Counted from the first letter of the stretch, positions 1 to 17,235 are shown. The stretch: 17,235 bases of DNA from a bacterium (GCA_041946805.1 JBHGBC010000130.1:1-17235), one strand, 5' to 3'. Notes: generated by a model from the letters alone, not told the origin. Numbers and translations: made by a program.

Positions 1-55
1 ATATAATTTATTTATGTATAATCCCAAAGGATTTTGAATTTTTCCCGAAAAGGCA

Positions 56-84
56 TTGACAAATAGTTATCATTGATGTATTGT
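56..84 (+). promoter_or_regulatory. sigma70-type promoter of the cluster
   Basis: Perfect -35 TTGACA (56-61), 17-bp spacer, -10 TATTGT (79-84, 4/6 match to TATAAT), AT-rich upstream DNA, 38 bp before the first ATG. Confidence 0.7.
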
Positions 85-122
85 TACCTCTGCAATAGAT
101 TCACAACAAGATAAACGAAAGG

Positions 123-329
123 ATGAAAACCTTGGCCGAACAGATAGGTGATACCGAAACTAGCCGTCAAATTATTGTGCGGATAAAAATCCCCACTCAC
201 CGGGCGTTGCGGATTAGGGTGGCGGAAGAGGATACTTCGATCCAAAAATGGGTGGAGGAATTGATCGAGCGGGAACTGGGAATCGCGGCGGAGAAAGAAG
301 GCTCTATTGCCACGAAAAAAGCCAGATAA
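123..329 (+). CDS. Small ribbon-helix-helix-like DNA-binding protein (68 aa), probable autoregulator
   Basis: Alternating beta-strand QIIVRIK followed by two amphipathic helices ([27 protein letters not shown]), as in Arc/CopG-type RHH proteins. First gene after the promoter; stop is 2 bp before the next ATG. Confidence 0.65.
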
Positions 330-331
330 AA

Positions 332-1069
332 ATGAGTGCCATTCAAAATGCGAGTCCCAAACCCCAATGGTTGATTGAGAATCCCAAGGACGGGACCCTG
401 CTGGTCCTGATCCCGGACGGAGATTTTTTGGCGGGTGATAAGAAATTTCCGGTTAATTTGCCGGCGTATTACCTGGCGGTGCATCCGGTGACCAACACGC
501 AGTACAAGCGGTTTGTGGAGGCGACGGGGCATCATCCTCCAAACCGGCCGGGTTATGTAACGCCGGTATGGAAGGGGAAAGATTTTCCGATAGAGAAGGC
601 GGATCATCCGGTGGTGTGCGTGAGTTGGAAGGATGCCAAGGCCTATTGCCAATGGGCGGGCATGCGGTTGCCGACGGAGTTGGAGTGGGAGAAGGGGGCG
701 CGGGGGGCGGACGGCCGGGAGTATCCGTGGGGGGACGGATGGGATCCGCATAAATGTAGAAATTCAGTGGGGCAACAAGCAAATGGGACTTGTGACATAT
801 GGTCGTATGCGGAGGGGAGCAGTCCCTGGGGATTGTATCAGATGGCGGGGAACGTGTGGGAGTGGTGTGAAGACTGGTATGACAGCCAGGCTTATGCAAG
901 ATATAAACGAGGGGATTTGTCCTTGCCGAAAAGTGGCCAGCATCGTGTGGTTCGCGGTGGCTCGTGGTACCGCTACTTCGTCAATTACTTCGGGTGCGCC
1001 TTCCGCAACAACTACGACCCGTCGGTTCGGGACCTCAACTTCGGTTTCCGTTGTGCCAGGACTTGTTAG
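332..1069 (+). CDS. FGE-sulfatase/CLec-fold protein 1 (245 aa), DGR target
   Basis: Motifs [53 protein letters not shown] and GFRCAR. Start set at ATG 332 rather than 248, which would overlap the RHH gene. Confidence 0.92.
944..1069 (+). repeat. DGR variable region VR1, with conserved 3' IMH-like end at 1043-1069
   Basis: 126-bp gap-free alignment with VR2-VR5; 15 of 16 variable codons end in C; ends GGTTTCCGTTGTGCCAGGACTTGTTAG. Confidence 0.85.
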
Positions 1070-1120
1070 TTTTTATCCTTTTACGCTTTTACCCTTTAGC
1101 GAGCGCAGCGAGCTCGCGCG
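1070..1120 (+). repeat. Post-VR cis element: three 8-bp T-rich units plus GC hairpin
   Basis: TTTTATCC TTTTACGC TTTTACCC (1071-1094), then GCGAGC-GCAGCGA-GCTCGC (1099-1117). Related copies follow VR2, VR4 and VR5. Confidence 0.8.
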
Positions 1121-1149
1121 CAATTTTAGAAAATGAGAGATGGTTTATC

Positions 1150-2232
1150 ATGAAACGTTACAGCCAGTTATGCGAATCGATTAGTTCGTTCGAGAATTTG
1201 TGGGCGGCCGCGTACCGGGCCAGACGCGGGAAGCGCTATCGTCCGGACGTTCTCGCGTTTCATCACGATCTGGAAAATCAGTTATTCACGCTGCGTGAAA
1301 AATTGCTCCATGAAACGTATCAACCCGGTCCGTATCGGACTTTTCCTATCCGGGATCCAAAACCCCGCTTGATCAGCGTGGCCAGTTATCGCGACCGTGT
1401 GGTTCACCACGCGATCTGCCAGATCATCGAACCGCTTTATGACCGGAGTTTCATTGACGATAGTTATGCCAACCGGCTGGGCCGGGGAACCCATAAAGCC
1501 GTGGCTCGGTGCACTTATTTTGCGCGGCGATACCCGTATGTTTTGAAATGCGATATCCAAAAATATTTCCCCTCCATCGATCACGAAATCCTCAAAATCC
1601 TCATCGCTCAAAAAATCAAATGCCCCCGAACCCTGCGATTGGCCGGCAAGATTATTGACAACTCCAATCCCCAAGAAGAAGTTGTGCAATATCTCCCGGG
1701 AGATGATTTGTTCACTTCGTTGGAACGCCGTAAAGGTATCCCGATCGGGAACCTGACCAGTCAATTCTTCGGGAATGTGTATTTGAATGGAATGGATCAC
1801 TATATAAAAGAGGCTTTGCATTGCGGTGCTTCTCTGCGTTTCGCGGACGACTTTCTCGTGTTCAAGGATGAGAAAGGGCGGTTGCACGCCATTCTTCGAT
1901 CCCTGCAAAATTATCTCAATCGCTTGCGCCTGAAATTGCATCCGCACAAATGCCAAGTGTCACCCACAGTCCATGGTGTGGAATTTTTGGGGTGGATCAT
2001 TTATCCCGATCACCGGAGGGTGCGGCGTTCCACCGGGCTTCGATTTCAGCGCCAATTACGCAAGCTTCAGCAGGCTTATGTCAAAGGATGGATTGATTTG
2101 AATTCCGTGAAAGCCTCGATAATGAGTTGGATTGGTCATTTGCAACACGGAGATACCCACGGTTTGCGGCGGAAATTATTAGAGTCAGCGGTTTTTTCGA
2201 GGAGTGCAGAATGTTGCACGACGGGAGAATGA
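1150..2232 (+). CDS. DGR-type reverse transcriptase (360 aa)
   Basis: MKRY start, YRDRVVHHA, LKCDIQKYFPSIDH, GIPIGNLTSQ (DGR-type SQ motif), RFADDF, GVEFLGW and SWIGHLQHGDT. Compact, with no group II intron maturase or endonuclease extension. Confidence 0.92.
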   Translation: MKRYSQLCESISSFENLWAAAYRARRGKRYRPDVLAFHHDLENQLFTLREKLLHETYQPGPYRTFPIRDPKPRLISVASYRDRVVHHAICQIIEPLYDRSFIDDSYANRLGRGTHKAVARCTYFARRYPYVLKCDIQKYFPSIDHEILKILIAQKIKCPRTLRLAGKIIDNSNPQEEVVQYLPGDDLFTSLERRKGIPIGNLTSQFFGNVYLNGMDHYIKEALHCGASLRFADDFLVFKDEKGRLHAILRSLQNYLNRLRLKLHPHKCQVSPTVHGVEFLGWIIYPDHRRVRRSTGLRFQRQLRKLQQAYVKGWIDLNSVKASIMSWIGHLQHGDTHGLRRKLLESAVFSRSAECCTTGE

Positions 2233-3485
2233 TGATGGACAAGATAAGTCTGGAAAAATATGGGAAGCGTTTGAGGAGCCGAATTCCGGTATGGGGCTTA
2301 ATGCGGCGCCGGGGCGCCATCCAAAAACTGGCGGAAGATTCCTCGAGCGAGGCGGTCCCCCTGTTGGTATCGGCATTGGATTCAACCGACCATACCGTGA
2401 GGGAAACGGCGGACCGGGCATTGCATTCACTGGAGGACCCGAAAGCGATTGACGCGCTGTGCGAAGAGGCCATTCGGAATCCTTCGGGCCGGGCGGCCGC
2501 GATTTGCCGGGAAACCAACAAGCGGCCGTCTGATCACGAACGGGCTTGCTTGTTCCTGTTTGTCACCCGGCAACTCGACGCCTATTTTGATGAGGATTTC
2601 GAGTTCCAAAACCTGCGGTTGCAATATGACCGGGAGGATGCGGTGGTCCAAGGGCATCTCATGGACATCGTGCGTTCCGGGGACCGTCGATGTTTGGGAT
2701 TTTTTGGCGCCCGCAAGTCTCTCTCCGAATGCACGGAGAGTGAAATCCAATTGGCCATCGATTCGGCGTTGCGGCATCAGGACTGGCCGCGTTTGTTTCG
2801 CGCGTTTTTGGAACTGCCTGTAAAGTACGGATATCCGTTGTTGGATCCATTCCGTGATTCCGGCTGGGAGCCGTCCGATCCGGAGTTGAAAAGCGTTTAC
2901 AAACATGTGCTGGAAGACAGCCGGGATCAATCATTCCCTGTAGAAAGAAAAATCAAGACCATCAGTCCCGTTTTCGAACGCTGGCTGATCCAAGGAAGGG
3001 AAAACACTTTTAAGGATCTTTCCGAAACGGAACTGCTCAACCGCTTGGAATCTTGCACACCACCGGAAGGGGTGTCGATTGTGGCCGCCCTGGCCGCCAA
3101 ATGCAAACCGGGAAGTGAAACCGCCCAGAAAATCCAACGGAATCCACACTGGTTGATTCGCCTGGCGGGCTACGCAACCGGTTTGTGTTTCGATCTGACC
3201 GTTGATGAAGTAAAAGACAGCAACTATTGGGTGAGGGAACTGGTAACCAGTAGCGCCGTACTCGAGTTGTGGCCAGGAAAAGCCACGCCGACCGATTTGG
3301 ATGCGTTAAAGGCCGCCCCACGGGAAGCCTGGTTGGGTAAATTCGGCGCGGTCCGGAAGGTTCTGCAAACCTTGATTGGATATCGCATCACCACAGGCGT
3401 GTATGAGGAAATGGCATTTGAAGCCGGTGAATTTGCCGGTGAATTCGACACCGCGATGGATTTTAACACGGACGATTCCAAATAA
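2229..3485 (+). CDS. N-terminal HEAT-repeat helical protein (about 418 aa) with acidic tail
   Basis: PBS-lyase/HEAT-like segment AIQKLAE..EAVPLLVSALDSTDHTVRETADRALHSL. ATGA overlap with the RT stop and GGGAG upstream; the start could also be 2232 or 2235. Confidence 0.7.
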   Translation: MMMDKISLEKYGKRLRSRIPVWGLMRRRGAIQKLAEDSSSEAVPLLVSALDSTDHTVRETADRALHSLEDPKAIDALCEEAIRNPSGRAAAICRETNKRPSDHERACLFLFVTRQLDAYFDEDFEFQNLRLQYDREDAVVQGHLMDIVRSGDRRCLGFFGARKSLSECTESEIQLAIDSALRHQDWPRLFRAFLELPVKYGYPLLDPFRDSGWEPSDPELKSVYKHVLEDSRDQSFPVERKIKTISPVFERWLIQGRENTFKDLSETELLNRLESCTPPEGVSIVAALAAKCKPGSETAQKIQRNPHWLIRLAGYATGLCFDLTVDEVKDSNYWVRELVTSSAVLELWPGKATPTDLDALKAAPREAWLGKFGAVRKVLQTLIGYRITTGVYEEMAFEAGEFAGEFDTAMDFNTDDSK

Positions 3486-3507
3486 CGTAGCGAAAAGAGA
3501 ACATGCC

Positions 3508-4044
3508 ATGAGTGTTAAAAGATACTTTGCACGGCTGGTTTCCGCATTGTTGGGGAGAGAGACATTGATAGCCGGCGTTGAGGGGAGCAATGCGTCAGTG
3601 CAGGCGCGAATTGCCCTCTTGGAGATGGACATCAAGGAAAGGGACAAGCGCATCACGGAGATGCAGAAAGAATACGCGAATCTCCAGGTTGCCCAGGAAA
3701 AAGCCACAGCCGGGGCCGGCCGGGAAGAGATCAAAAATTTATGCAAACGCCTGGTGGGAACATTATCCAATCTGGATGTGCTGGTCTCTCTCGAAAAGTC
3801 GGGCCGGGAAGTAGCCGTCAAGGATTTGATCGAACTGATCCTGAGCCTGGAAAAAGAACTCGGCCGGATTGGACTGGAAAAGATCGGAACCGTGGGGATG
3901 GAAACCGGTTTTGATCCAGTTTTTTATCAGCGAATGAGTGGGGGCAGTGTTCGGGCAGGGATCCCGGTGGTTGTGCGCATTCCAGGGTACCGGATGGGCG
4001 AGAAAATATTGCTCAAAGCGATGGTCACCGCCCAGGAGGCCTAG
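3508..4044 (+). CDS. GrpE-like nucleotide exchange factor (178 aa)
   Basis: Long N-terminal coiled coil, then a GrpE-like head GLEKIG..G..FDP..YQ..VVVRIPGYRMGEKILLKAMV; directly upstream of the Hsp70. Confidence 0.75.
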   Translation: MSVKRYFARLVSALLGRETLIAGVEGSNASVQARIALLEMDIKERDKRITEMQKEYANLQVAQEKATAGAGREEIKNLCKRLVGTLSNLDVLVSLEKSGREVAVKDLIELILSLEKELGRIGLEKIGTVGMETGFDPVFYQRMSGGSVRAGIPVVVRIPGYRMGEKILLKAMVTAQEA

Positions 4045-4045
4045 G

Positions 4046-5677
4046 ATGAGCCAGGTATCGGTCGACTTTGGGACAAGCAATACCGTTTTAGCCCGGTTTA
4101 ACGAGACCACGCAACGGGTAGAAACCCTGGATATCCCCGGTATCGCCAGTGAAATGCGCTATCGCTTGACGCAAGATGGACCGGAACAATTCGTTCATGT
4201 TATTCCTTCCCTCATTCATTATTCCGAAACGGAAACCTTGATCGGCAACCAGGTTTTATCGCGTGGCTTGGCCGAACATCCGGACACGTTCCGATGGATG
4301 AAACGCGCGATCGCCCGTCGCATTACCAAATGCAAGAAGACGGCTCAAGGCCATATCGATCCCCTGCAGGCCGGGGAAGATTTTTTGAAGGCGTTGTTGA
4401 ATTATGCCAGCGACCGGATTTCCTTCACCAACGATGATTTTACCTTCACCGCGCCGGTGGAGGCGTTCGAGGATTTTCAAGATTGGCTTTGGAAAGTCAT
4501 CGAAGGATTGGGAATCCGGAGGTTTCGTATGTTGGATGAGCCCACATCGTGCGTGTTTGGCTATCATGGAGCCGCCCGGAAAGACGAACGATTCGTGATG
4601 TTCGATTTCGGCGGAGGCACGTTGGACGTGTCGACGATCCGGATTGAAATGAGTTCAACCGACACGAAAAAGGCCGTTCAGCTAGGCCAGGCCGGCCAGG
4701 ATCTGGGGGGAATGGATATCGATCAATGGCTGGCGGAAGATTTTAGCACTCGGCATAAGTTGGACGACCGGGAAAAGCGGGATTTGGAAGCCATCATTCT
4801 CCGGCAGGCCGAGGCGGTCAAGATTGCATTATCGGACCCGCTGGAGGCAGAAGCCGGATTTCAGATTATTAGCCAGGCTGGATCCGCGCCGAGATTGCTT
4901 CGTACTACGTTTACACGCAGTTGTGCGCAGTGCGAACGCGGTCAGGTGGGCAATCACTCTGCCCCGGGAGAAGCGTGCATGGGCTGTATCTTGCTTCAAA
5001 AGGATTTCGTGAAACAGGTGCGGGATACGATTGACCGGGCGCTGGAGAACGCGGCGGTGAAAGTGGGGATGCGAAAAAATGAGATCACAAAAGTACTGGT
5101 CACCGGGGGAACCAGTTTAGTCCTTTGCGTTCAAGACATCTTGAAGAATTGCTTTGATTGCCACATTGAATATGACCATCCATTCGATACGGTGGTGCGC
5201 GGGGCGTGCCGGGGAATCGTGGAACCGGTTCTTCAGCATGACTACGCCATTGAAAGTTATAACAGCTCCCGGAAAGAGTATGAATTCAAGCCCTTATTCA
5301 AGATCGGCACTGAATTCCCCACGCGAAAAGATGCCGTCAGGTTTTGGGCCAAGGGCAGTTACGATGGCATGACCCGGATCGGATTGAAAATCTATGAAGT
5401 GTCCCGCATGAAGCGGAGGGATCTCGCGGTGGCCATCGTGGGGGAGGATGGCCGATTGCGGGGAGACAGCCGGGTAACCAGCGAGTATGAGTACATTTGT
5501 TTGAATGAAGACAATCCCACGTTTATCCTGGCCGATCCCCCAGTGAATCTGGCGCGGGATCAACAACGTTTCCTCTGTTCGTTCGGAATCGACGGCAATC
5601 GCCGGTTGCTGGTAACCGTGCTCGATACCCTACGCAGAAAACCCTTGCTCAAAGAGCATCCCGTTGTCCGACTGTAA
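4046..5677 (+). CDS. Atypical Hsp70-family ATPase (543 aa), not a housekeeping DnaK
   Basis: VDFGTSNT, LDEPTS, FDFGGGTLDVS, LGGMDID, AEAVKIALS and VLVTGGTS; AGGAGG RBS at 4034-4039. Short divergent C-terminal beta region with no helical lid. Confidence 0.9.
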   Translation: MSQVSVDFGTSNTVLARFNETTQRVETLDIPGIASEMRYRLTQDGPEQFVHVIPSLIHYSETETLIGNQVLSRGLAEHPDTFRWMKRAIARRITKCKKTAQGHIDPLQAGEDFLKALLNYASDRISFTNDDFTFTAPVEAFEDFQDWLWKVIEGLGIRRFRMLDEPTSCVFGYHGAARKDERFVMFDFGGGTLDVSTIRIEMSSTDTKKAVQLGQAGQDLGGMDIDQWLAEDFSTRHKLDDREKRDLEAIILRQAEAVKIALSDPLEAEAGFQIISQAGSAPRLLRTTFTRSCAQCERGQVGNHSAPGEACMGCILLQKDFVKQVRDTIDRALENAAVKVGMRKNEITKVLVTGGTSLVLCVQDILKNCFDCHIEYDHPFDTVVRGACRGIVEPVLQHDYAIESYNSSRKEYEFKPLFKIGTEFPTRKDAVRFWAKGSYDGMTRIGLKIYEVSRMKRRDLAVAIVGEDGRLRGDSRVTSEYEYICLNEDNPTFILADPPVNLARDQQRFLCSFGIDGNRRLLVTVLDTLRRKPLLKEHPVVRL

Positions 5678-5706
5678 CGGGAAGGGGAGAAAGAAGAATA
5701 CTCATC

Positions 5707-7242
5707 ATGAATCTCAAGGAAGAATTACTCGCGTTGTTCGGGGCGAATGTTCCCATGATGAACCTGATCACTTACGAAGAAGACCGGGTGATTCGCTGCA
5801 TCCAGGAATTGCCGGGCAATTTCGGGATTTATACGTGGGATATGGCGGATGGCTTCAAGTGCATCCGGGAAGGAAAGGAACCCTTTCCTAAAAAGGATGT
5901 AACGACGGATACCCTCCTGCCGCATATCGCCGAAAAAGCCCCGACGGGGTACGTTTTTGTTTTCAAGGATTTCCATCATTCCTGGACGCAAAAAAAGGGG
6001 TACATCACCCGCAAATTACGCAACATGGCCCCCGAGTTGCGCAAACGCAACCAATTTCTGGTTTTTCTTACGCCCGCGGCCGAGCTTCCGCTGGAACTCA
6101 AAGACGATGTAGTCGTTTTGCATGTGCCCTTGCCGGACAGCCATGAAATGGAGCAATTGTATGATGATGTGACGCGCAATTTGGATCGAGGAAGATTACC
6201 GCATCGTGACTTGCGGGGAAAACTAGTTTCCTCGGCGCTGGGATTGACCACGAATCAAGCCCGATTGGCCTTTTCGCGGGTTTGGGCGCGGTATCAGAAG
6301 TTTGATGAACGCGGTATTGATTTGGTCACCTGGGCCAAGCGGGAGGTGATCCGCGAGAGTGGCGCGTTGGAATTCTGGCCGGCGGAGGAGGGGGAAACGA
6401 GTGTCGGGGGATTGGATTTGATGAAAGCGTGGCTTAAGAAGCGTGGCATCGCTTTCGATGAGGAAGCGAGAAAAGCAGGGCTGCCCTTTCCCAGCGGAGT
6501 GGCGTTGATCGGCATTCCCGGCACCGGCAAAAGTTTATCGGCCAAGATGCTGTCCGGCTTGTGGAAGATGCCGTTGTTACGGCTGGATATAGGAGCGGTA
6601 TTCGAATCGTTGTTAGGCGAATCCGAAAAACACATGCGCCGGGCCATCATGCTGGCGGAGACGGTCAGTCCTTGTATTTTGTGGATCGATGAGATGGAAA
6701 AAGCCTTTGCGGGATCGGGCACAGGTGCTTTGAACAGTGGAGCCGCCACGCGGGTCTTCGGCGGTTTTTTGACCTGGATGCAGGAACATAAAAGCCCGGT
6801 GTTCGTATTTGCCACGGCCAACGATATCAACGCCTTGCCGCCGGAACTCATGAACCGGTTCGAGCGGACCTTTTTCCTCGATCTGCCCAACGCCCTGGAA
6901 CGGGAAGAGATCTTTATCATCCACTTGAAACGGGCCGGAGAAATCAATCCCAAACACCGTTTCCGGATGAACGAATTGGTCGAACGCAGCCGCAGCCTGG
7001 TAGGCCGGGAGATTGAACGCGCCGTGCGGGAAGCCCAATTCACCGCTTTCGCCGATGGCAACCGCGAGATCACGCAAACGGATTTGGAGGATTCTCTTCG
7101 GGAGATTGTCCCCATTAGTCAATCTCACGCGGAAATCATTGAAGGTTTGCGAAAGTGGAAGACCGAGGGCCGCGCATTCCCCGCTTCCAGCGAGGAAAAG
7201 CGATCGGATCTGACGCGCGGACGACAAATCGAGATTGAATAA
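5707..7242 (+). CDS. Ycf46-like AAA+ ATPase 1 (511 aa)
   Basis: N-terminal TYEEDR and degenerate first domain (FVFKDFH); Walker A GIPGTGKS; Walker B LWIDEMEK; FATAND. Confidence 0.88.
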   Translation: MNLKEELLALFGANVPMMNLITYEEDRVIRCIQELPGNFGIYTWDMADGFKCIREGKEPFPKKDVTTDTLLPHIAEKAPTGYVFVFKDFHHSWTQKKGYITRKLRNMAPELRKRNQFLVFLTPAAELPLELKDDVVVLHVPLPDSHEMEQLYDDVTRNLDRGRLPHRDLRGKLVSSALGLTTNQARLAFSRVWARYQKFDERGIDLVTWAKREVIRESGALEFWPAEEGETSVGGLDLMKAWLKKRGIAFDEEARKAGLPFPSGVALIGIPGTGKSLSAKMLSGLWKMPLLRLDIGAVFESLLGESEKHMRRAIMLAETVSPCILWIDEMEKAFAGSGTGALNSGAATRVFGGFLTWMQEHKSPVFVFATANDINALPPELMNRFERTFFLDLPNALEREEIFIIHLKRAGEINPKHRFRMNELVERSRSLVGREIERAVREAQFTAFADGNREITQTDLEDSLREIVPISQSHAEIIEGLRKWKTEGRAFPASSEEKRSDLTRGRQIEIE

Positions 7243-7261
7243 GCGAAAAGGAGCGAGACCC

Positions 7262-7654
7262 ATGTCTCATTTTGTGCGCATTAAAACTCAAATTCGCGAG
7301 CGGGAGATTCTGGTTCAATCCTTGCGGGATTTGTATTACCGGTTTCAGGAAGGACAGAACCTGGTCATCCGCGGATATCAGCAAAATCGTGAACAGGCTG
7401 AAATCCTAGTAAATACCGGTTCACAATATGACATTGGCTTTCGCCGGACGGCCCAGGAATACGAAATCGTGGCCGATTGGTGGGGTGTGCAAGGCAATAC
7501 AGCCATTCGGCAAGAGGAATTTGTCCAACAAGTGAACCGTCAGTATTCCTACAATCTGATTCACAACCAAGCGCGAGAACAAAACCTGATAGTCGAGGAA
7601 GAAAAGACGTTGGAAAACGGGGATGTTGTTTTGATCTTGTCGGAGCGCGGATAG
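7262..7654 (+). CDS. DUF1257/Ycf35-like protein (130 aa)
   Basis: Characteristic MSHF.RIKTQI start, [13 protein letters not shown] and [22 protein letters not shown] upstream; usual neighbour of Ycf46-like ATPases. Confidence 0.82.
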
Positions 7655-7658
7655 ATCA

Positions 7659-8372
7659 ATGTCTTATGACATTCTTATCGAGAATGAGAAAGACGGCACG
7701 CTGCTGGTTTTGATTTCGGAGGGGGATTTTTTGGCGGGTGCTGAAAAGTTCCCGGTCCATTTACCGGCGTATTACTTGGCGCTGCATCCGGTGACCAATG
7801 CGCAGTACAAGCGGTTTGTGGAGGATACCGGCCATCGGCCGCCGTATAAGGCGAGTTCGAGAAACCCATTGTGGAGGGGGAAAGATTTTTCGCAAGAGAA
7901 GGCGGAACATCCGGTGGTGTGCGTGAGTTGGGGGGACGCGCAGGACTATTGCCGATGGGCGAGATTGCGGTTACCGACAGAGTTGGAGTGGGAGAAGGGG
8001 GCGCGGGGAATAGAAGGCCAGGAGTATCCCTGGGGGGAGGGGATGGATTGGGGGAAATGCCGGAATGCTAAAAACAAGGGGAATGAGACGACTTGTAATG
8101 TATGGTCGTATACGTCCGGGTGCAGTTCGTGGGGGCAGTATCAGATGGCGGGGAACGTGTGGGAGTGGTGTGAGGATTGGTTTGATGGACAAGCCTTTGA
8201 AAAGTATAAGCAAGGGGATTTGTCCTTGCCGAAGAGGGGAAAGTATCGTGTGGTTCGCGGGGGCTCATGGAACTTCTACAAAGACAATTATTTTCATTGC
8301 ACGTACCGTATCGACTACGTCCCGTCGTCTCGAAACAACATATACGGTTTCCGTTGTGCCAGGACTTATTAG
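7659..8372 (+). CDS. FGE-sulfatase/CLec-fold protein 2 (237 aa), DGR target
   Basis: Close paralog of CLec1 with the same motifs; ends GFRCARTY. Confidence 0.92.
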
Positions 8373-8402
8373 TTTTTACATATTTATCCTTTAGCGAGCG
8401 AA
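8247..8402 (+). repeat. VR2 (8247-8372) plus truncated post-VR element
   Basis: 12 of 16 variable codons end in C; one mismatch in the IMH-like end; only two degenerate 8-bp units and only the left hairpin arm (TTTAGCGAGCGAA). Confidence 0.8.
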
Positions 8403-8718
8403 TCCAAAGTCCTAGTAGAGTTTATCGTTATCATAAATACCTTCGATCATTGCCGAGAGATGATGTAGAGGATGAGGAAAGCATTCATATAATTTATGCT
8501 TTGCAATTCACGAACAGCAGGGAATTGCAAATAAGGTTCCTTTCCGGCTTAGATCAAATAGAAAAATCACGAGACCGAAATCCCAAAGCGGCTGAAAGGT
8601 TTATAATGCTTGTGCGAATACCTCCCAGTTACTCAGTTGTAAAAGGTAGAGAGATAATGGCTCATATTTTGAGAAATGAGGGTATTGTGTTGTTCTTGTC
8701 GGAGCGGGGATAACATCG

Positions 8719-9480
8719 ATGCCATACGATCTGATCATCGAGAATCCTAAGGACGGAACCCTGCTGGTCCTGATTCCGGCGGGAGAGTTCTTGGCGGGTG
8801 CTGATAAGTTCACGGTCCATTTGCCGGCGTATTACCTGGCGCTGCATCCAGTGACCAATGCGCAGTATAAGAAGTTTGTGGAGGAGACGGGGTATAGCAC
8901 GTCTGATACGATGGTTTCTTCAGTTTGGCAAAATAAATATTTCAATAATAAAAAATTGGATCATCCCGTAGTGGAGATTAGTTGGTATGATGCTCAGGCT
9001 TATTGTATTTGGGCGGGTTTACGACTGCCGACGGAGTTAGAATGGGAGAAAGGAGCGAGAGGAAAGGATGACCGGAAATATCCCTGGGGACATGAATGGG
9101 ATCCTAGAAATTGTAGAAATTCTGTAGGTCAAAGAGTCTATGGAACATGTGGAGTATGGTTGTATTCAGAGAATTGTTGCCAATGGGGTTTGTACCAAAT
9201 AGCGGGTAATGTGTGTGAGTGGTGTGAAGATTGGTATGACACCCATGCATATGAGAAATATAAGCAAGGAATTTTGTCAATGCCAAAAAATGATAATGTG
9301 CTTCATAATGTGCTTAATAAAAAATCGTTGCTCCGTGTTGTTCGCGGGGGCTCGTGGAGAAACATCAGTAGCATCGGCTTTCAATGCGCTTACCGAGAAG
9401 GCGTCGATCCTTCGTCTCGAAAATACAACATCGGTTTTCGATGCGCCAGTCCTAATAAGGCTCACCCGTATTGCAGGTAA
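8719..9480 (+). CDS. FGE-sulfatase/CLec-fold protein 3 (253 aa), divergent, probably no longer diversified
   Basis: Same motifs but AT-richer codons, AGNVCEW, an insertion before RVVRGGSW and an extended C-terminus ([15 protein letters not shown]). Confidence 0.9.
9334..9459 (+). repeat. Degenerate VR3
   Basis: Aligns gap-free with the other VRs; 11 of 16 variable codons end in C; IMH-like end eroded (GGTTTTCGATGCGCCAGT); no downstream element. Confidence 0.7.
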
Positions 9481-9545
9481 AGCAATCATGCACATAATTT
9501 TCAAAATCAATCCTCTATAAAATCGTAAGGCTGGGGAGAACCACC

Positions 9546-9743
9546 GTGAAAAAAATCAAAATAACCCTCCACAAAGACGGCACGCAAAAAATCGAAGTGC
9601 TGGGCGGAACTGGGGAAACATGCATGGAATTCACCCGGGAACTCGAACAACGGCTGGGGAAACCCATTGGGGAACGCATCCTCAAACCCGAATATCACGA
9701 AACCATAACTGAAACCGAGAAGGATTTTGAGGTGGAATCGTGA
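9546..9743 (+). CDS. DUF2997-like small protein (65 aa)
   Basis: IKITLHKDGTQKIEVLGGTGETCMEFTRELEQRLG pattern; GGGGAG RBS and GTG start; overlaps the next AAA gene. Confidence 0.8.
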   Translation: MKKIKITLHKDGTQKIEVLGGTGETCMEFTRELEQRLGKPIGERILKPEYHETITETEKDFEVES

Positions 9744-11386
9744 TGGTTACCCCTTCGACGGTTCCCTCCCCGGCCGGACAATCCAAATTCCAGCAGGACC
9801 TGCAGATTTACATCCGCGCGGGGTACCCGATTTTGTATGTGGTTACGGCGGAAGAGGACCGGGCCATCGACTTGATAACCCATTCCTCGCAGGAAGGGGA
9901 GTTGGCCCGCCGGAAACCACTGATCTGGTCGATCTCCCGAGGATTGTGCACGATCGATCACAAAGCTGTCGATCGAAAAATCCTCGATCCTAAAATCATT
10001 TTGCCGTTTTTGCTGGAATTCCAGGAGCCGGGTTTGTTTATCCTGGAGGATTTCCACTTTTTCATGGATGAGCGCTCTCCCACCGCCCCGCTGATCATCC
10101 GGCAGCTGCGCGACCTGGTGGCGCCGTTCAAAGCCTCCCGGAAAACCGTGATTATCCTTTCCTCCATCCTGAAAATACCTCCGGAATTGGAGAAGGATAT
10201 CACCGTGCTCGATCTGGATCTCCCCACGGAAGCGGAACTCCTGGAGGTGCTGAATGAAACCGTCGACCAGGTCAAGGACAATCCCAAAGTAGAGATCAAC
10301 TTGGAAAGCGGCGGGAGCGAAATCATCGTGAAAGCGCTGAACGGATTGACACGGACGGAATCCGAAAACGCCTTGGCCAAGATCATCGTGACCAACAGCC
10401 GCATCGATCCCGAAGACGTGGAGTTGCTGCTCGCGGAAAAGGAACAGATCATCCGCAAGTCGGGAATGTTGGAGTTTTATTCCAGCCCCGAACGCTTTGG
10501 TTCCATCGGAGGATTGGATTTACTCAAACGCTGGTTGCGGCAACGAGGAAAAGCGTTTTCCGAATCCGCCCGGCTGTTTGGGCTGCCCAATCCTCGCGGA
10601 TTGCTGCTGGTGGGCGTTCCCGGATGCGGTAAAAGCCTCACCGCCAAAGCGGTAGCCGCCGAGTGGAAGATGCCGCTGCTCAAATTTGATTTAGGAAAAG
10701 TCTTCGCCGGACTGGTCGGTGAATCAGAAGAGAACATGCGCCGCGCGATTAAGATGGCGGAAGCCGTTTCCCCCTGCGTGCTGTGGATCGATGAAATTGA
10801 AAAAGGACTTTCGGGAGTCCGCGGCCACGGTGACAGTGGAGTCACTACGCGTGTTTTTGGGACGCTTCTGACCTGGATGGAAGAAAAAACCAAAGCGGTT
10901 TTTGTGGTCACCACCGCCAATGACATCGAAGGCCTGCCGCCCGAACTGCTGCGCAAAGGCCGTTTCGATGAAATTTTCTTTATCGATCTTCCCTCTCCCT
11001 TGGAGCGCGCCAACATCCTGGCCATTCATTTGACCAAGAATCACCGCGACTACCGTGATTTTGACCTTTCACCGCATGTAGCTGCCAGCGAAGGATTCTC
11101 CGGGGCGGAGTTAGAGCAAGTTGTTATCTCAGCGTTGTATGAAGCCTATGCGGAAGGAGAAAAAAGCCGGTTGGAGAATCGTCATCTCGAAAAAGCCATC
11201 CGGACTTCGGTTCCACTCTCCAAATCCATGGCTTCCAAAATCACCAAACTACGTTACGAAGCCCGTGACCAATGGCGGATGGCTTCCAGCGGGGAAGACG
11301 GTGGAAAGGACCAAGTAATCGGAGAGGTTTCCATGGGTGAAGTTCCACCCGTTCACACCAAACCCAAACGAGTGTTCGAACTGTGA
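9740..11386 (+). CDS. Ycf46-like AAA+ ATPase 2 (548 aa)
   Basis: [26 protein letters not shown], Walker A GVPGCGKS, Walker B LWIDEIEK and an intact [16 protein letters not shown]. Confidence 0.9.
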
Positions 11387-11393
11387 ACCGATC

Positions 11394-12212
11394 ATGAAAT
11401 TCATCAGTAAATCCAAATTGTCAGTGATTGGATCCAAAACAGATTATGAATCCACGACTCAGGTTCTGACGGTATGGGATTCAGTACTGAACCGTTTCCC
11501 CAATTTTCCCCCCATCATCGAGAACAAGAAAGACGGGACATTGCTTGTTTTGATTCGGGAAGGATTATTTTTGGCTGGTGTAAGTAGATTTCTGGTTCGA
11601 TTACCGGCGTATTACTTGGCACTGCATCCAGTGACCAACGCGCAGTACAAGAAGTTTGTGAAGGCAACGGGGCATCGTCCGCCAAACCAGCTGGATTATG
11701 GGACACCGGTCTGGAGCGGGAGAGATTTTCCGAACGAGAAGGCGGATCATCCGGTGGTGTGCGTGAGTTGGGAGGATGCTCAGGCATATTGTCAATGGGC
11801 GGGATTGCGGTTGCCGACGGAGTTGGAATGGGAGAAGGGGGCACAGGGGAAGGATGGCCGGGAGTATCCCTGGGGGCTGGTGATGGATTGGGAGAAATGC
11901 CGGAATGATAGAAACAGAGGAGATGAGACGACCTGTAGCGTATGGTCGTATGCGGAAGGCAGCAGTCCGTGGGGATTGTACCAGATGGCGGGGAACGTGG
12001 AGGAGTGGTGTGAGGACTGGTATGACAATCAGGCCTACGATAAATACAAGGAAGGGAATATGTCCTTGCCGAAGAGTGGCCAATCTCGTGTGGTTCGCGG
12101 GGGCTCGTGGAACGACCGCTGCGCCTACTTCATCCAGTGCGCTGGCCGTCACTACCGCGTCCCGTCGGAGCGGAGCGACGGCCGCGGTTTCCGTTGTGCC
12201 AGGACTTGTTAG
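11394..12212 (+). CDS. FGE-sulfatase/CLec-fold protein 4 (272 aa), DGR target
   Basis: Paralog with a leader of about 40 aa and AGNVEEW; ends GFRCARTC. Start set at the first ATG after the AAA2 stop. Confidence 0.9.
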
Positions 12213-12262
12213 ATTTTATTCTTTTACACACTTACCTTTTAGCGAGTGCAGCGAGCTCGCGC
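12087..12262 (+). repeat. VR4 (12087-12212) plus post-VR element
   Basis: 16 of 16 variable codons end in C; IMH-like 27-mer identical to VR1 and VR5; degenerate 8-bp units, then GCGAGT-GCAGCGA-GCTCGC (12242-12260). Confidence 0.85.
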
Positions 12263-12287
12263 GAAAATCTTGTGAAGGATAGTCATC

Positions 12288-14639
12288 ATGACCAGCGGCG
12301 GCCCTTACAAAATCGGCCAGGAATTCGGATCTTATTGCCTGGAAAGATACCTGGGTTCCGGCGCGTTCAAGAGTGTGTATTGCGCGACAAACCGGGGGAT
12401 GGATATACTAGTAACGGCTGTCGCCCTTGGTTTTCCCCATCAACAGGACGCGTTGGGGCTGGAAGACCTTGAAAAAGAATTTGCTGTCAACAGCCGGTTA
12501 ATCCACCCCAACATCGTGCGGACCTACGGATTGGAAAAACACGAAGGGATTGCCTTTCTAGTCATGGAATATGTGGAAGGTCAAACCTTGCGTCAAATTA
12601 TGAAGGATCGCGGCCCTTTATCGCCGCCGGAAGCGATTCGATATGCCGGGCTGGTCTCGGAAGCCTTGGCCTACGCCCATGCCTCCCGTGTTTTGCACCG
12701 GGACGTAAAACCTGACAACATCTACATCACCCAGGAGAATATTCCCAAACTTTTCGATTTCGGCGTCGGCCGCCTGTTATCCCGTACCAGTCAAAAGGCC
12801 AGTACCCGTATCGGGACGGTGGAGTACATGGCCCCGGAAGCCCTGCAGGGCGCCACGGGAATCCAGTCGGACATCTGGTCGCTGGGTATCACGCTCTATG
12901 AAATGCTGACCGGAATCCTGCCGTTCGCGGGAGAAGTCGGGGAAGTGATCCACAAGATCATGACGGCCAAATTCGACGAAGCGCCGCTGCGCCAGAAACA
13001 TGTCGATAACCGGATCATCCGGGTCCTTCGGAAAGCATTGAGTAAGGACCCCAATACCCGTTATCCCAACGCCGGGGAGCTGAGCCGGGACCTGGAAACC
13101 GTGGCCCGCCGTACCCGCATGGCCGATGATGACGAGAGCCGCTTAGAGATTCTCATCCGCGCCAGTATCCCACTCATTGGCGTTTGCTCGTTTGAAGAAG
13201 AACGCGTGCTGACCGCCATCCGGAACATCGCGCAACGGCTGACCGAAGACCGAGGCCGGCCGCGGCGGATGTATATCTGGAGCACATCCCGCGGCTTGCG
13301 CGACGAGGAAAATAAGCTGATCGGCAAGGATTCCGCGGGGGATCCCACCCTGGCTTTGTTGCATCTGATCGATGATCCCGACGATGCCATTTTTGTTTTT
13401 CTCGACATTCACGATCACTTCACGCCGGTGACGACGCGCCTGATCCGGGACGCCGCCCGGGCGGTCCGTATGACTCACAAGTCGGTTCTCTTTTTGTCGC
13501 CATTCTATAAAGTGCCAGATGAACTCCAAAAGGAGGTCACATTATCCCTGTATCAGTTACCTGACCGGACCTGCCTCGAACCGTTGCTCGATCAATTGAT
13601 CGATGAGTTCAAGAACGCCAACTTGCCAGTTGAATTGTCGGATGAGGATCGAATGGCGGTCATCCGGGCGTCAATGGGATTGACTCTGAACGAAGCGGAA
13701 CGGGCGATCCGCGCCGCCGGACTGAGATTGCAGGGATTGAAATCGGGCATCGACCGGCTCGTAGCCGAAGAAAAAACACAAGTGATCCGCAAAACGGGCA
13801 TTTTGGAATACTATCATCAATCCGATTCGTTCAAGGACGTTGGAGGATTGAACGAATTGGTGAAATGGTTCCAATCCCGGCTGCCGGTTTTCGCCGGGAC
13901 AACACGGTATGCCGGCCTTCCGCAGCCCAAGGGCGTTCTGTTAGTTGGCGTCCCTGGATGCGGCAAAAGCCTGACTGCACGCGCCTTGGCGGGAGCCTGG
14001 CAAGTCCCGCTGTTGCGTTTGGATGTCGGACGCATTTTCGGTTCGTTGGTCGGTGCTTCCGAGGCCAATCTGCGCCGCGCCATCCAAACCGCGGAATCAG
14101 TCAGCCCGTGTATTTTGTGGATCGATGAAGTGGAGAAAGGTTTTTCGGGTGTGCGCGGGCAAGGAGACAGTGGTGTCTCCGCCCGTGTGTTCGGCACATT
14201 TTTGTCCTGGCTGCAGGATAAAAAAAGTCCGGTATTTGTGGTGGCCACCGCCAATGATCTCTCCGGCATCCCCCCGGAGTTTTTACGGCAGGGACGTTTT
14301 GACGATATTTTTTTCGTCGGCTTGCCCGGTAAAAAACAACGGGAGGATATATTCAAAATTCACTTGAACAAACGACACCGCGATCCGGATACGTTTAACC
14401 TCCCCGGCTTGGTCGAGGCGAGCGGGCAATTTTCCGGCGCGGAAATCGAACAGGCAGTCATCGCGGGTCTTTTCCATGCCTTCGACCATGACCGGGAACT
14501 GGAAAGCGAAGATATCCATCAGGCATTGAAAGAAACAGTTCCCCTCGCTCAATCCCGTCGAGAAGACATCCGCCTCTTGACCGCGTGGGCCAGTCAAAAC
14601 GCGAAATATGCCAATCTGGAAGGATCCACGCCATCATGA
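12288..14639 (+). CDS. Hanks-type Ser/Thr kinase (WNK-like lysine placement) fused to Ycf46-like AAA+ ATPase 3 (783 aa)
   Basis: Kinase: [50 protein letters not shown]+: [34 protein letters not shown]. Confidence 0.92.
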
Positions 14640-15421
14640 CCGATCACATAGATCGTAATACAACAATCCCGATTCTGACTCCAGGTGATTTCGCGCTTGA
14701 CAACATTTTGGGTTTTTCTCCAATCATTGAAAACGAAAAAGACGGAACGTTGCTGGTCCTGATCCCGGCGGGGGAGTTTTTAGCAGGGAAAGAAAAGTTC
14801 CCGGTCCATTTGCCGGCGTATTACCTGGCGCTGCATCCGGTGACCAACGCGCAGTACAAGCGGTTTGTGGATGAGACCGGCCATCGGCCGCCGGATCAGA
14901 CGAATGGGGGAACGCCGGTGTGGAAGGGAAAAGATTTTCCCCAACAGAAGGCGGATCATCCGGTGGGGTGCGTGAGTTGGGTGTATGCCCAGGCCTATTG
15001 CCAATGGGCGGGAATGCGATGGCCGACAGAGTTGGAGTGGGAGAAGGGGGCGCGGGGGACGGCCGGCCGGGAATATCCCTGGGGGGAGGGGATGGATTGG
15101 GAGAAATGCTGGAATAAAGAAAATAAGGGGAATGAGACGACCTGTGATGTATGGTCGTATGCGGCCGGATGCAGTCCGTGGGGGCTGTATCAGATGGCGG
15201 GGAATGTGTGGGAGTGGTGTGAGGACAGGTATGACGACCAGGCATATGAAAGATATAAACGAGGGGATATATCCTTGCCGAAAAGCGGAACGTCTCGTGT
15301 GGTTCGCGGGGGCTCGTGGTACGACAATAACGTCAACTACTTCCAATGCGCCGACCGCAGCCCCTACGACCCGTGGTCGCGGCACCTCTCCTGCGGTTTC
15401 CGTTGTGCCAGGACTTGTTAG
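14636..15421 (+). CDS. FGE-sulfatase/CLec-fold protein 5 (261 aa), DGR target
   Basis: ATGA overlap with the kinase-AAA stop; same motifs; ends GFRCARTC. Confidence 0.9.
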
Positions 15422-15484
15422 TTTTTATCCTTTTACGCTTTTACCCTTAAAACGAGCGAAGCGAGCTTGCTGCAAATTTTGCAG
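15296..15484 (+). repeat. VR5 (15296-15421) plus post-VR element
   Basis: 15 of 16 variable codons end in C; 15394-15448 is identical to 1042-1096 (55 bp); then CGAGCGAAGCGAGCTTGC and the inverted repeat CTGCAAA-T-TTTGCAG (15470-15484). Confidence 0.85.
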
Positions 15485-15497
15485 AAATGGTGTTTGC

Positions 15498-16070
15498 ATG
15501 AAAGTCCAAATGCACGGCATAGAGTTAGCCAGCCGATCAAATGGACCTGGATTACGTGCGGCAATCTGGTTTCAAGGTTGTACGCTGCATTGCTTCGGTT
15601 GTTTCAATCCTGAAACTCACGATCCCACGAGTGGATTTGTGATGGAAACCCAGGATCTTGCCCATATGATCCATTCTTCAAACCTTCCCCTCGAGGGAAT
15701 CTCGATATCCGGCGGGGAGCCGTTCCAGCAATCCGAAGCGCTATACGATTTTCTCACACAAGTGGACCGTTCAAAATTGAGCGTTTTGGTTTTTACCGGG
15801 TATACCTTGGATGAAGTGAAACGGATTCCATTGGGATTACAAATCCTGACAATGGCCGATGCACTAATCGCGGGACGCTATCAACCAAACCAACCGTCCA
15901 ATTTCGCTCTATTGGGTTCATCGAATCAAAAGATCCATCTGCTCACCAATCGATATCGCATTTCCGATTTCGCATCCATTCCGCACAGCGAAGTAATCCT
16001 TCACAAAGATGGAACAATCACGATAACCGGTGTTCACCCCTTGAAAGCGCATGGGGCTACCCATGAATGA
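15498..16070 (+). CDS. NrdG/activase-like radical SAM protein (190 aa)
   Basis: NGPGLRAAIWFQGCTLHCFGCFNPETH (CxxxCxxC), ISISGGEPFQQ, VFTGYT and GSSNQK. Confidence 0.88.
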   Translation: MKVQMHGIELASRSNGPGLRAAIWFQGCTLHCFGCFNPETHDPTSGFVMETQDLAHMIHSSNLPLEGISISGGEPFQQSEALYDFLTQVDRSKLSVLVFTGYTLDEVKRIPLGLQILTMADALIAGRYQPNQPSNFALLGSSNQKIHLLTNRYRISDFASIPHSEVILHKDGTITITGVHPLKAHGATHE

Positions 16071-16818
16071 GAATTACTCACTATATAACATCGTATGTGC
16101 AGGCCTGACCGATCGGGGTCGAATCCGCGCGGAAAATCAAGATGCCTTTTTCATGCTGCCTGAGAAAGGCTTTTTCTTAGTCGTGGATGGCCTCGGCGGT
16201 CATCAAGCGGGGCGCCACGCCGCGGAAATGATAACCAACATCTTACCAGAACAGATTTTACAATTATCTTTAACGGTATCAAATGGCACAAAAGCCATCG
16301 CAGCGGTGCTGCAAGAAGAAATCCGGCGTTTGAATCATATTCTCTGGCAAGCAAGTGAATCCTACGAAAATATTCGTGGCATGGGAGCCACGCTGGTCAT
16401 GGCATATTCGCTCCAAGAAAACGTATTCATTGCACATGTCGGAGACAGCCGGGCTTATTTATTACGCGCGAACCAATTGAATCCCTTAACCAAGGATCAT
16501 TCCATCATTCGACATCTCGTGGATAGTGGGGTCATCACTCCCGACAAGGCAGACGATCATCCGATGAAAAATCAAATCACGCAATGTATCGGAATGGAAA
16601 AGGATATCGCACCTGATATTACATCATTTATTACTCAAGCAGGAGATCGGATTTTGCTCTGCACAGACGGACTGTCAGAAATGCTGAAGGATACCGAAAT
16701 AGCGGAGATTTTGAATAGTCAGAAAGATTCCCAACTGGCTTGTCAAATACTTATTGAAATGGGTAACGACCGAGGCGGTGAAGATAACATGACCGTTGTC
16801 ATTGTGGATTGGATATAG
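16063..16818 (+). CDS. PP2C/PPM-family Ser/Thr phosphatase (Stp1/PrpC-like, about 251 aa)
   Basis: TDRGRIRAENQD, VVDGLGG, MGATL, AHVGDSRAY, LTKDHS, LLCTDGL and GGEDNMT; alternative start at 16051. Confidence 0.93.
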   Translation: MNENYSLYNIVCAGLTDRGRIRAENQDAFFMLPEKGFFLVVDGLGGHQAGRHAAEMITNILPEQILQLSLTVSNGTKAIAAVLQEEIRRLNHILWQASESYENIRGMGATLVMAYSLQENVFIAHVGDSRAYLLRANQLNPLTKDHSIIRHLVDSGVITPDKADDHPMKNQITQCIGMEKDIAPDITSFITQAGDRILLCTDGLSEMLKDTEIAEILNSQKDSQLACQILIEMGNDRGGEDNMTVVIVDWI

Positions 16819-17235
16819 TTAATTTTAACATATCTTCTCTTGAAATGAAAAAGTGAAAAGATTATGCTGAAATTCCTTTTTTTACTTATGAATTCTTATC
16901 TACCTATCCATATTGGATTATTCCAGCGTACATTTGAGGATGGAGATCATATCTATCTACAATCCTCGTTTTTCAACCGTCTGCCTTTCACTTTTCAATC
17001 TCCAATAGCACGCTTTGAACAACATCTAGATAATCAAAATCCTCTCCCTCGCCATAGAGTTCAAGGTTTGTCCACACGAAGGCAGAATTCATAAGAGTCC
17101 TTCAATTGGGGGCAGGGCAATAAACCGCTGCGCAACTCTGAGCCAACGTGTGTAATTTTAAAATATTTTCAGTATCTATTTCATTCCGTGTAACTTACCA
17201 ATAGAGAAGCTCCCCTTTATCTGGCAAAATACCGG

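Follow-up and report, generated by a model that had tools for sequence, protein, structure and literature searches.

The 17,235-nucleotide (nt) stretch analyzed here (hereafter, the window) is the entire contig C36 (GCA_041946805.1, JBHGBC010000130.1:1-17235) of a bacterial metagenome-assembled genome (MAG) of 6.7 Mb, with 315 contigs and an estimated completeness of 96.8%. It holds a chromosomal array of the diversity-generating retroelement (DGR) type, made of one reverse transcriptase (RT) and five target genes of the formylglycine-generating enzyme (FGE)/lectin kind that appear to have been diversified by mutagenic retrohoming. In a DGR the transcript of a template repeat (TR) is reverse-transcribed, random bases are inserted opposite its adenines, and the resulting cDNA replaces a variable region (VR) in the target gene. 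The explanation that best fits the results of this work, and which we hold with modest confidence, includes a template that lies outside the assembly. The system itself is fairly ordinary, and is either incompletely assembled or recently disabled.

Codon footprint of the variable regions

Every gene discussed here lies on the + strand. Those on which the argument depends, with their VRs, are the following:

332-1069, +: T1, target of the FGE-sulfatase/C-type-lectin-fold type, 245 amino acids (aa) (PF03781, E 4e-54; PDB matches to FGE and to 2y3c)
944-1069, +: VR1, i.e., scaffold RVVRGGSW (8 codons), 25-codon variable core, scaffold GFRCARTC (8 codons) and stop
1070-1149, +: 3′ flank common to the target cassettes, here the entire spacer between T1 and the RT
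1150-2232, +: predicted DGR-type RT, 360 aa, full length, with IGNLTSQ and FADD (RVT_1, E 3.5e-23)
7659-8372, +: T2, target paralogue, with VR2 at 8247-8372, aged (PF03781, E 8e-49)
8719-9480, +: T3, divergent target paralogue, with VR3 at 9334-9459, a fossil, with altered scaffold and a 3′ flank that is not shared (PF03781, E 4e-47)
11394-12212, +: T4, target paralogue (start inferred, ~11394), with VR4 at 12087-12212 (PF03781, E 7e-49)
14636-15421, +: T5, target paralogue (start inferred, ~14636), with VR5 at 15296-15421 (PF03781, E 1e-49)

All five targets belong to the PF03781 FGE-sulfatase family (E 4e-47 to 4e-54) and carry the VR at their C-terminus, and their matches in PDB are formylglycine-generating enzymes and the Treponema denticola variable protein 2y3c (E 3e-13). 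They are predicted from these matches to have an FGE-type C-type-lectin fold with a C-terminal VR. The VRs start at the five positions originally proposed (944, 8247, 9334, 12087 and 15296) and, as was also claimed, align without gaps from the 5′ scaffold through the stop codon. They form repeats of 114 nt at the end of the five paralogues, in which 8 scaffold codons are followed by the core of 25 and by 8 more scaffold codons (GFRCARTC in four copies). A 15-mer of the 3′ scaffold occurs exactly at 1043, 8346, 12186 and 15395, with 3 mismatches at 9433, and once more as an unrelated match on the minus strand (6 matches against 0.71 expected, a number reached in 0 of 200 shuffles). A 14-mer of the 5′ scaffold occurs exactly at four sites and with 1 mismatch at 9334, which with five further matches of 3 mismatches each, looking like chance, makes 10 against 1.74 expected. 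The original description of the scaffold as near-invariant stands for the 8-codon flanks, which hardly vary (codon positions 1, 2 and 3 in 0, 0 and 2 codons of one flank and in 0, 1 and 0 of the other). It does not extend to VR3, which is much less clean than the other four VRs and whose scaffold differs at non-adenine sites as well, nor is the conservation dramatically above that of some segments of the gene bodies.

Within the core, variation was said to fall mainly on the first two codon positions, and this is what we see: positions 1, 2 and 3 vary in 17, 17 and 11 of the 25 codons, as opposed to 58, 54 and 96 of the 191 codons aligned in the bodies of T1, T2, T4 and T5. Confinement of the variation of AAY-derived codons to positions 1-2, as found here, is one of the marks by which DGRs are recognized. 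In the 16 columns of the AAC type, the third position is C in 15, 12, 11, 16 and 15 codons of VR1 to VR5, exactly the counts first reported. Over the whole cores, C occupies the third position of 19, 13, 12, 18 and 19 of the 25 codons (72-76% in VR1, VR4 and VR5), compared with 15, 13, 10, 16 and 16% in the bodies of T1 to T5; the preference for NNC is, therefore, far above the 10-16% background of these genes, to which it might otherwise have been ascribed. Three or four different bases are found in 21 of the 50 core columns at positions 1-2 and in only 24 of the 378 body columns at the same positions, and core positions 1-2 show 82 transitions to 158 transversions where body third positions show 428 to 292. 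The variable codons mostly encode Tyr, Asn and Asp.

The link of this variation to adenines comes from the relatives of the RT. Forty-four loci were taken, of which the 42 with an RT match are the basis of all counts. An AAC-rich block (at least 10 AAC/AAT codons in 30) lies near the RT in 34 of them, within 0.8 kb upstream in 5 and within 1 kb downstream in 29; an Avd homologue lies within 1.5 kb of the RT in 31, and both are present in 29; these relatives are bona fide DGRs. The closest RT in the genome collection (58% identity) is that of L034, a Bacteroidia-labelled MAG contig with a syntenic order of RT, HEAT-like open reading frame (ORF), FGE target and Hsp70-like gene, whose target is 60-64% identical to T1, T2, T4 and T5 and 52% identical to T3. 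This locus is complete, with Avd at 720-1070, TR at 1104-1225, a 190-nt spacer and the RT. Its TR and VR differ at 26 sites, 25 of which are TR adenines, its VR has the same 8 + 25 + 8 codon geometry, and AAC codons stand at the columns that vary in the window.

With the TR of L034 as a stand-in, 36 of the 39 adenine columns vary among the five VRs, as opposed to 28 of the 84 non-adenine columns (Fisher p 2.9e-10). Restricted to VR1, VR4 and VR5, the counts are 29/39 and 11/84 (p 3.3e-11), and odds ratios range from 12 to 24 depending on the VRs chosen, with p from 6e-9 to 3e-11. This coincidence, together with the adjacent RT and the lectin-fold targets, supports the original prediction of adenine mutagenesis by a DGR. 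The TR that had been reconstructed from the VRs agrees in layout with the real one of L034, but is approximate, core codons 5, 6, 8, 9, 11, 13, 20 and 21 being ambiguous.

The reverse transcriptase and the absent template

The RT ORF, of 360 codons, begins 81 nt behind the stop of T1 and VR1. It aligns end-to-end, at 45-58% identity, with RTs of related genomes that are flanked by Avd and an AAC-rich TR, and its motif 4 of the IGxxxSQ type and its xxDD place the predicted product of 1150-2232 in the DGR clade. The best match among solved structures is a 328-aa reverse transcriptase (E 9e-52), which we take to be the bRT of the Bordetella phage. Closer RTs, of a clade with FADD, are found in the database at 65-67% identity, and none of the 35 genomes of the window's phylum in the collection has a closer one. 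The FADD itself, in place of YxDD, was considered as a sign of a dead enzyme and rejected, since, of the 115 other closest homologues in the database that show the motif, 66 carry FADD and 94 begin it with F; in the genome collection, Y is the first residue in 39 of the 40 relatives with the motif. Out of 60 columns conserved at 90% or more, the RT deviates at 4, where 29 relatives range from 0 to 12. Judged by its sequence, the enzyme appears not to be decayed.

That the template is missing was part of the first claim, and it holds more strongly than was stated: no TR occurs anywhere in the contig or in the rest of the MAG. Sensitive blastn of the five VRs against the 315 MAG contigs returned the five copies only, and a second sequence search of the MAG likewise gave no sixth copy of VR or TR. 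The next best match (37.9 bits), a partial scaffold match in C224, was discarded as the conserved RGGSW region of another FGE gene. No TR emerged from a scan of the whole MAG for AAC/AAT density, in which an AAC-rich stretch at the end of C150 was rejected as a Q/E-rich coding region. Neither a second RT nor an additional copy of the shared 3′ flank occurs in the contig or the MAG, and no Avd was found in the MAG by tblastn with the Avd of two relatives (best E 0.31) or by PF05635 (0 hits). Excerpts of Wu et al. (PMC5758913) give 75 of 372 curated DGRs as having no accessory genes; a missing Avd is not strictly disqualifying for a DGR. The TR is not hidden among the five copies either, as no copy, tried as the donor, has more than 18 of 36 mismatches at its own adenines (the best donor being VR2).

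Beyond the MAG, a search of public metagenome contigs for two scaffold motifs 75 nt apart found no TR and one unrelated VR, and a scan of viral contigs with the 5′ scaffold gave 0 matches. The unrelated VR (L078:1-420) is of the FGE type and is followed, about 170 nt on, by some 35 first codons resembling a DGR-type RT with no long ORF behind them, a penicillin-binding-protein gene being next; L078 may be a decayed DGR.

The absence of a TR beside the RT is real and not a local misassembly, since an independent public assembly, probably of the source sample, shows 0 differences from the contig over 1067-8008, and behind the RT no room for a TR exists because the HEAT gene starts inside or at its stop. 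In two database homologues of the RT (P0075 and P0094), the gene calls read through an N-rich TR (RGGSWNN...GFRVA), a spacer of 50-100 codons and the RT, so that their TR immediately precedes the RT, where the window has VR1. Inspected by eye, the N-terminal read-through of P0039, a homologue of the FADD clade, hints that other RTs, too, may be preceded by a flank like the 81-nt spacer of the window.

The assembly leaves places where a template could lie. The MAG has no contig below 1.6 kb, and the end of the window (17143-17206, within the last ~60-90 nt) matches the first 59-64 nt of three other contigs (C151, C159 and C267) at 97-98% identity, as well as an internal site of a fourth (C294); this is a dispersed repeat that interrupts the assembly. 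An Avd-TR module of 0.5-1 kb between such repeats would, therefore, be lost. At the other end, X1, a set of assembled contigs that probably comes from the source sample and covers the window, includes a 2529-nt Logan contig that lies on window positions 1-622 and extends about 1.9 kb past the window's first base. Over 54 bases that span the end of the scaffold, the stop codon and the flank, VR1 and VR5 are identical (1043-1096 = 15395-15448). The public contigs, built with k=31, break at this repeat (1067 and 15419-15423), so it is from the MAG assembly alone that T1, and not T5, is taken to precede the RT. Matches in X2 and X3 are short pieces, mostly less than 90% alike, with a few near-identical ones of 150-240 nt. 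In X5, raw reads of the same study, the organism is absent, with a depth of about 0 outside conserved motifs.

Ages of the variable regions and fate of the template

Third codon positions also allow a rough dating of the VRs. Departures from the five-way majority were counted at 38 sites per VR, within its 41 codons. They number 2, 1 and 2 in the VRs of T1, T4 and T5, whose bodies depart at 14-17% of sites (17% in T4, p 0.02; 14% in T5), and pooling the three gives 5/114 for the VRs against 77/510 for the bodies (p 0.0012). In T2 and T3, on the other hand, the VRs depart at 7/38 and 13/38 where the bodies depart at 14% and 36%, and the pooled counts (20/76 and 86/340) do not differ (p 0.88). 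The clean third positions of VR1, VR4 and VR5 indicate that a single shared template served to rewrite these three, later than the divergence of the paralogues. By the same measure, VR2 and VR3 have drifted like ordinary DNA and are fossils that are not serviced any more. Ageing, one of the two causes first suggested for the few third-position differences, thus holds for VR2 and VR3, which have drifted as much as their bodies, but not for VR1, VR4 and VR5. As for the GCC/GCT and CGC/CGT differences in particular, they may reflect template adenines at four-fold degenerate third positions, which is an alternative to both ageing and a second TR.

The 3′ flanks follow a similar division. A flank of about 60 nt is common to the DNA after VR1, VR4 and VR5, partly to that after VR2, and not to that after VR3; the segments 1058-1096 and 15410-15448 do not differ, and identity is 89% between 1058-1120 and 12201-12263. 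GC hairpins downstream of the VRs, considered as recognition elements, are not better than those of shuffled sequences (z -1.4 to +0.3). The spacer between T1 and the RT resembles the VR flank of L034, not its TR-RT spacer, and recombination between a VR and a TR is not supported as the origin of the T1-RT junction, the 81-nt spacer being of the VR-flank type shared with T4 and T5. VR1 (944-1057) and VR5 (15296-15409) share 6 of the 16 variable codons, including GTC and CTC, as opposed to 0-3 in the other pairs; common ancestry with partial re-diversification and convergent selection are both possible.

The mechanism that we propose is the following. A cDNA copied from an AAC-rich TR would randomize positions 1-2 of about 16 codons and leave the third-position C and the scaffold fixed, and what is rewritten would be the C-terminal ligand-binding loops of T1 to T5. 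The scaffold, which does not vary, would guide the cDNA, perhaps together with the 60-nt flank. It is somewhat more likely than not that the organism still has the template, alone or along with Avd, outside this assembly; the template could sit either in the ~1.9 kb upstream of the window's start or on a short unbinned contig, acting in trans on the products of the RT. As published work has proposed for lectin domains that DGRs diversify in NTPase conflict systems, the targets are probably variable sensors for the genes with which they are interleaved, namely three AAA+ modules (one of them fused to a kinase) and the Hsp70, GrpE and HEAT genes listed further below.

A number of observations weigh against this proposal. 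Both flanks of the RT are occupied, by the T1 flank 81 nt upstream and by the HEAT gene overlapping the stop, and since 34 of the 42 relatives keep an AAC-rich block there, the TR-spacer-RT (or RT-TR) unit must be truly broken, as either loss or relocation would have left it. At least one change in VR5 is impossible as an adenine site (TCG to TGG), and VR1 has GGT where GGG is expected. Three residues ahead of FADD, the RT of the window has Ser at a position that is otherwise almost always Tyr. The adenine specificity of the window is read solely from the template of a relative with 58% identity, and the functional link between targets and the AAA+, kinase and Hsp70 genes solely from gene order. 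Finally, no sign of VR polymorphism was obtained from reads, the organism being present only in assembled contigs, which drop rare variants.

Several of these observations would also be at home in a relic, i.e., a DGR in which the arrival of the T1 cassette before the RT went with the deletion or displacement of Avd, TR and spacer, and whose VRs have been frozen since, the RT being left as an orphan, either undecayed or reused. This is a serious possibility, although one to which we give less credence. It would account for the filled flanks of the RT, for the non-adenine changes in VR1 and VR5, for the Tyr to Ser change, and for the lack of any TR, Avd, second RT or extra flank copy in a MAG that is 96.8% complete, and it agrees with VR2 and VR3 being demonstrably no longer homogenized. 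In G001, a genome of the same genus, nothing matches the RT at E<=1e-20 and the FGE protein that is present has just 42% identity, which under a relic would make the locus a recent and dispensable acquisition, and the VR and apparently truncated RT start of L078 suggest that such decay may occur. The RT, however, is of full length, changed at no more of the conserved columns (4/60) than is typical of intact relatives, and keeps its catalytic motifs, with FADD as the norm of its clade. The third positions of VR1, VR4 and VR5, moreover, are far cleaner than those of the bodies (p 0.0012), so any loss of the template must be recent, and a module of 0.5-1 kb between repeats would be missed in a MAG of 315 contigs with none below 1.6 kb.

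A far less probable alternative is that one of the copies, most plausibly VR1, is itself the template, coding and self-diversifying. VR1 does occupy the slot directly upstream of the RT, at a spacer of 81 nt, where L034 and the read-through ORFs P0075 and P0094 have their TR. As a donor, however, it has only 4/30, 8/44, 10/33 and 5/24 of its mismatches with the other VRs at its adenines, of which there are only 14 in 114 nt, and even the best donor (VR2, 18/36) falls short of the 25/26 seen in the real pair of L034; its 3′ flank, furthermore, is of the VR type shared with T4 and T5, unlike the spacer between TR and RT in L034. Without any retroelement, ordinary divergence of the paralogues under positive selection for a variable binding loop, added to a local preference for NNC, would be in keeping with a scaffold not far better conserved than some body segments and with the predominance of Tyr, Asn and Asp, which selection on binding residues might also produce, but this highly improbable reading is close to refuted by the third-position C (10-16% in bodies and 72-76% in the cores of VR1, VR4 and VR5), by variable columns that coincide with adenines in the real TR of a homologous locus (p 3e-10), by the adjoining DGR-type RT, and by doublet changes, 3-4 states per column and an excess of transversions.

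Neighboring genes and known systems

The remaining features of the window are:

123-329, +: small ORF, no family (ORF only)
2211-3485, +: HEAT-repeat protein, starting inside or at the RT stop (HEAT_2; L034 has a homologous ORF behind its RT)
3508-5677, +: GrpE-like and Hsp70-like genes (Pfam GrpE 1.7e-8, HSP70 3.7e-20; an Hsp70-like gene also in L034)
5707-7242, +: AAA1, classical AAA+ module, paralogue 1 of 3 (Pfam AAA 2e-24; 37-39% identity, over some 500 aa, with AAA2 and with the C-terminal part of the kinase fusion)
7235-7654, +: DUF1257
9740-11386, +: AAA2, classical AAA+ module, paralogue 2 of 3
12288-14639, +: Ser/Thr kinase fused to an AAA+ module, paralogue 3 of 3 (Pkinase 4e-49, AAA 1e-29)
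between T5 and PP2C, +: radical-SAM activase-like gene
16051-16818, +: PP2C phosphatase, closing the locus

The three AAA+ modules are paralogues, with 37-41% identity over about 500 residues, and a target gene comes after each of them. All three match PF00004, the CDC48, FtsH and IetA models being matched as well, below their cut-offs, and no vWA domain and no MoxR was found by Pfam among the proteins of the window. Their common N-terminal region of about 250 aa has no family match, and PADLOC gives the AAA+ and kinase genes matches to IetA and to PD-T4-6/MAD6-type kinases that look sub-threshold.

The DGR of Bordetella phage BPP-1 (mtd-avd-TR-brt) is the mechanistic prototype of these elements. 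The window resembles it in the homology of the RT and in having a C-type-lectin target with a C-terminal VR, and differs from it in being chromosomal, in the FGE type of its lectins, in having no Avd or TR that could be found, and in a downstream GC-rich hairpin that is weak and not significant. L034, by comparison with the window, is complete, has one target within the 8.4 kb compared where the window has five, and has YVDD in its RT instead of FADD.

Closer parallels are the systems of the Treponema denticola TvpA type and of Thiohalocapsa PB-PSB1 (Dore et al. 2024, PMC10907252). They share with the window an RT of the DGR clade serving several targets, lectins of the FGE-type fold with the VR at their C-terminus, AAC-derived codons that vary at positions 1-2, and NTPase and kinase neighbors. 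For Thiohalocapsa, Dore et al. report incomplete DGR loci that have no TR and are served in trans, unequal activity among VRs, structural variants with or without TR and RT, and templates away from the target or the RT. Unlike in those systems, the assembly of the window is without any TR, there is no donor in cis or in trans that could be named and no Avd, and the targets are small stand-alone proteins and not fusions to NACHT, vWA or kinase domains.

A second parallel is found in the NTP-dependent conflict systems of Kaur et al. 2020 (PMC7159879), where, in the portions of that text considered here, DGR-diversified FGS/FGE domains occur among NTPases, Hsp70/GrpE and kinases, and where the TR of ternary systems sometimes lies elsewhere in the genome. 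The window differs from what these portions describe by having no MoxR or vWA, by its ATPases being classical AAA+ of the CDC48/FtsH/IetA-like kind, and by its unfused FGS domains. Having neither MoxR nor vWA, it is not a member of the described ternary systems, and the likeness is thematic only. It is tempting to speculate on an undescribed conflict or sensing system with non-MoxR NTPases, in which each AAA+ module would have its own lectin sensor, with Hsp70/GrpE/HEAT and PP2C, a single RT and a template kept apart, but as a whole this is rather unlikely.

Multi-target chromosomal DGRs with FGE targets among NTPases are thus known, as are incomplete loci, and current understanding is not overturned. 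The twists added by the window are modest, namely an intact RT that has neither TR nor Avd in the assembly, and targets that clearly differ in age. The VRs alone suffice to recognize a DGR target array and to date it roughly, here with three serviced after the expansion of the family and two abandoned, and a distant relative allows the layout of the template to be predicted. Should the template indeed be kept apart from the RT, or have disappeared from a locus whose RT is still intact, the window would represent a stage of DGR rearrangement or decay that surveys anchored on the TR skip by design. The one-to-one interleaving of lectins with AAA+ and kinase modules, in addition, would be a further example of cellular DGRs diversifying the sensors of conflict systems.

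A few minor observations concern the locus as a whole. Rfam gave 0 families at the gathering score, and a literature search found no publication that pairs a DGR with DUF1257. What is left of a DUF1257 C-terminus (44 nt, 8669-8712, 80% identical to 7610-7653) stands at the end of the spacer between T2 and T3 (8373-8718), so DUF1257-T2 and remnant-T3 look like a tandem duplication. The bodies of T1 to T5 have about 50% G at the third position (34% in T3) and 10-16% C, an unusual codon or strand bias, and the GC skew is strongly positive across most of the window.

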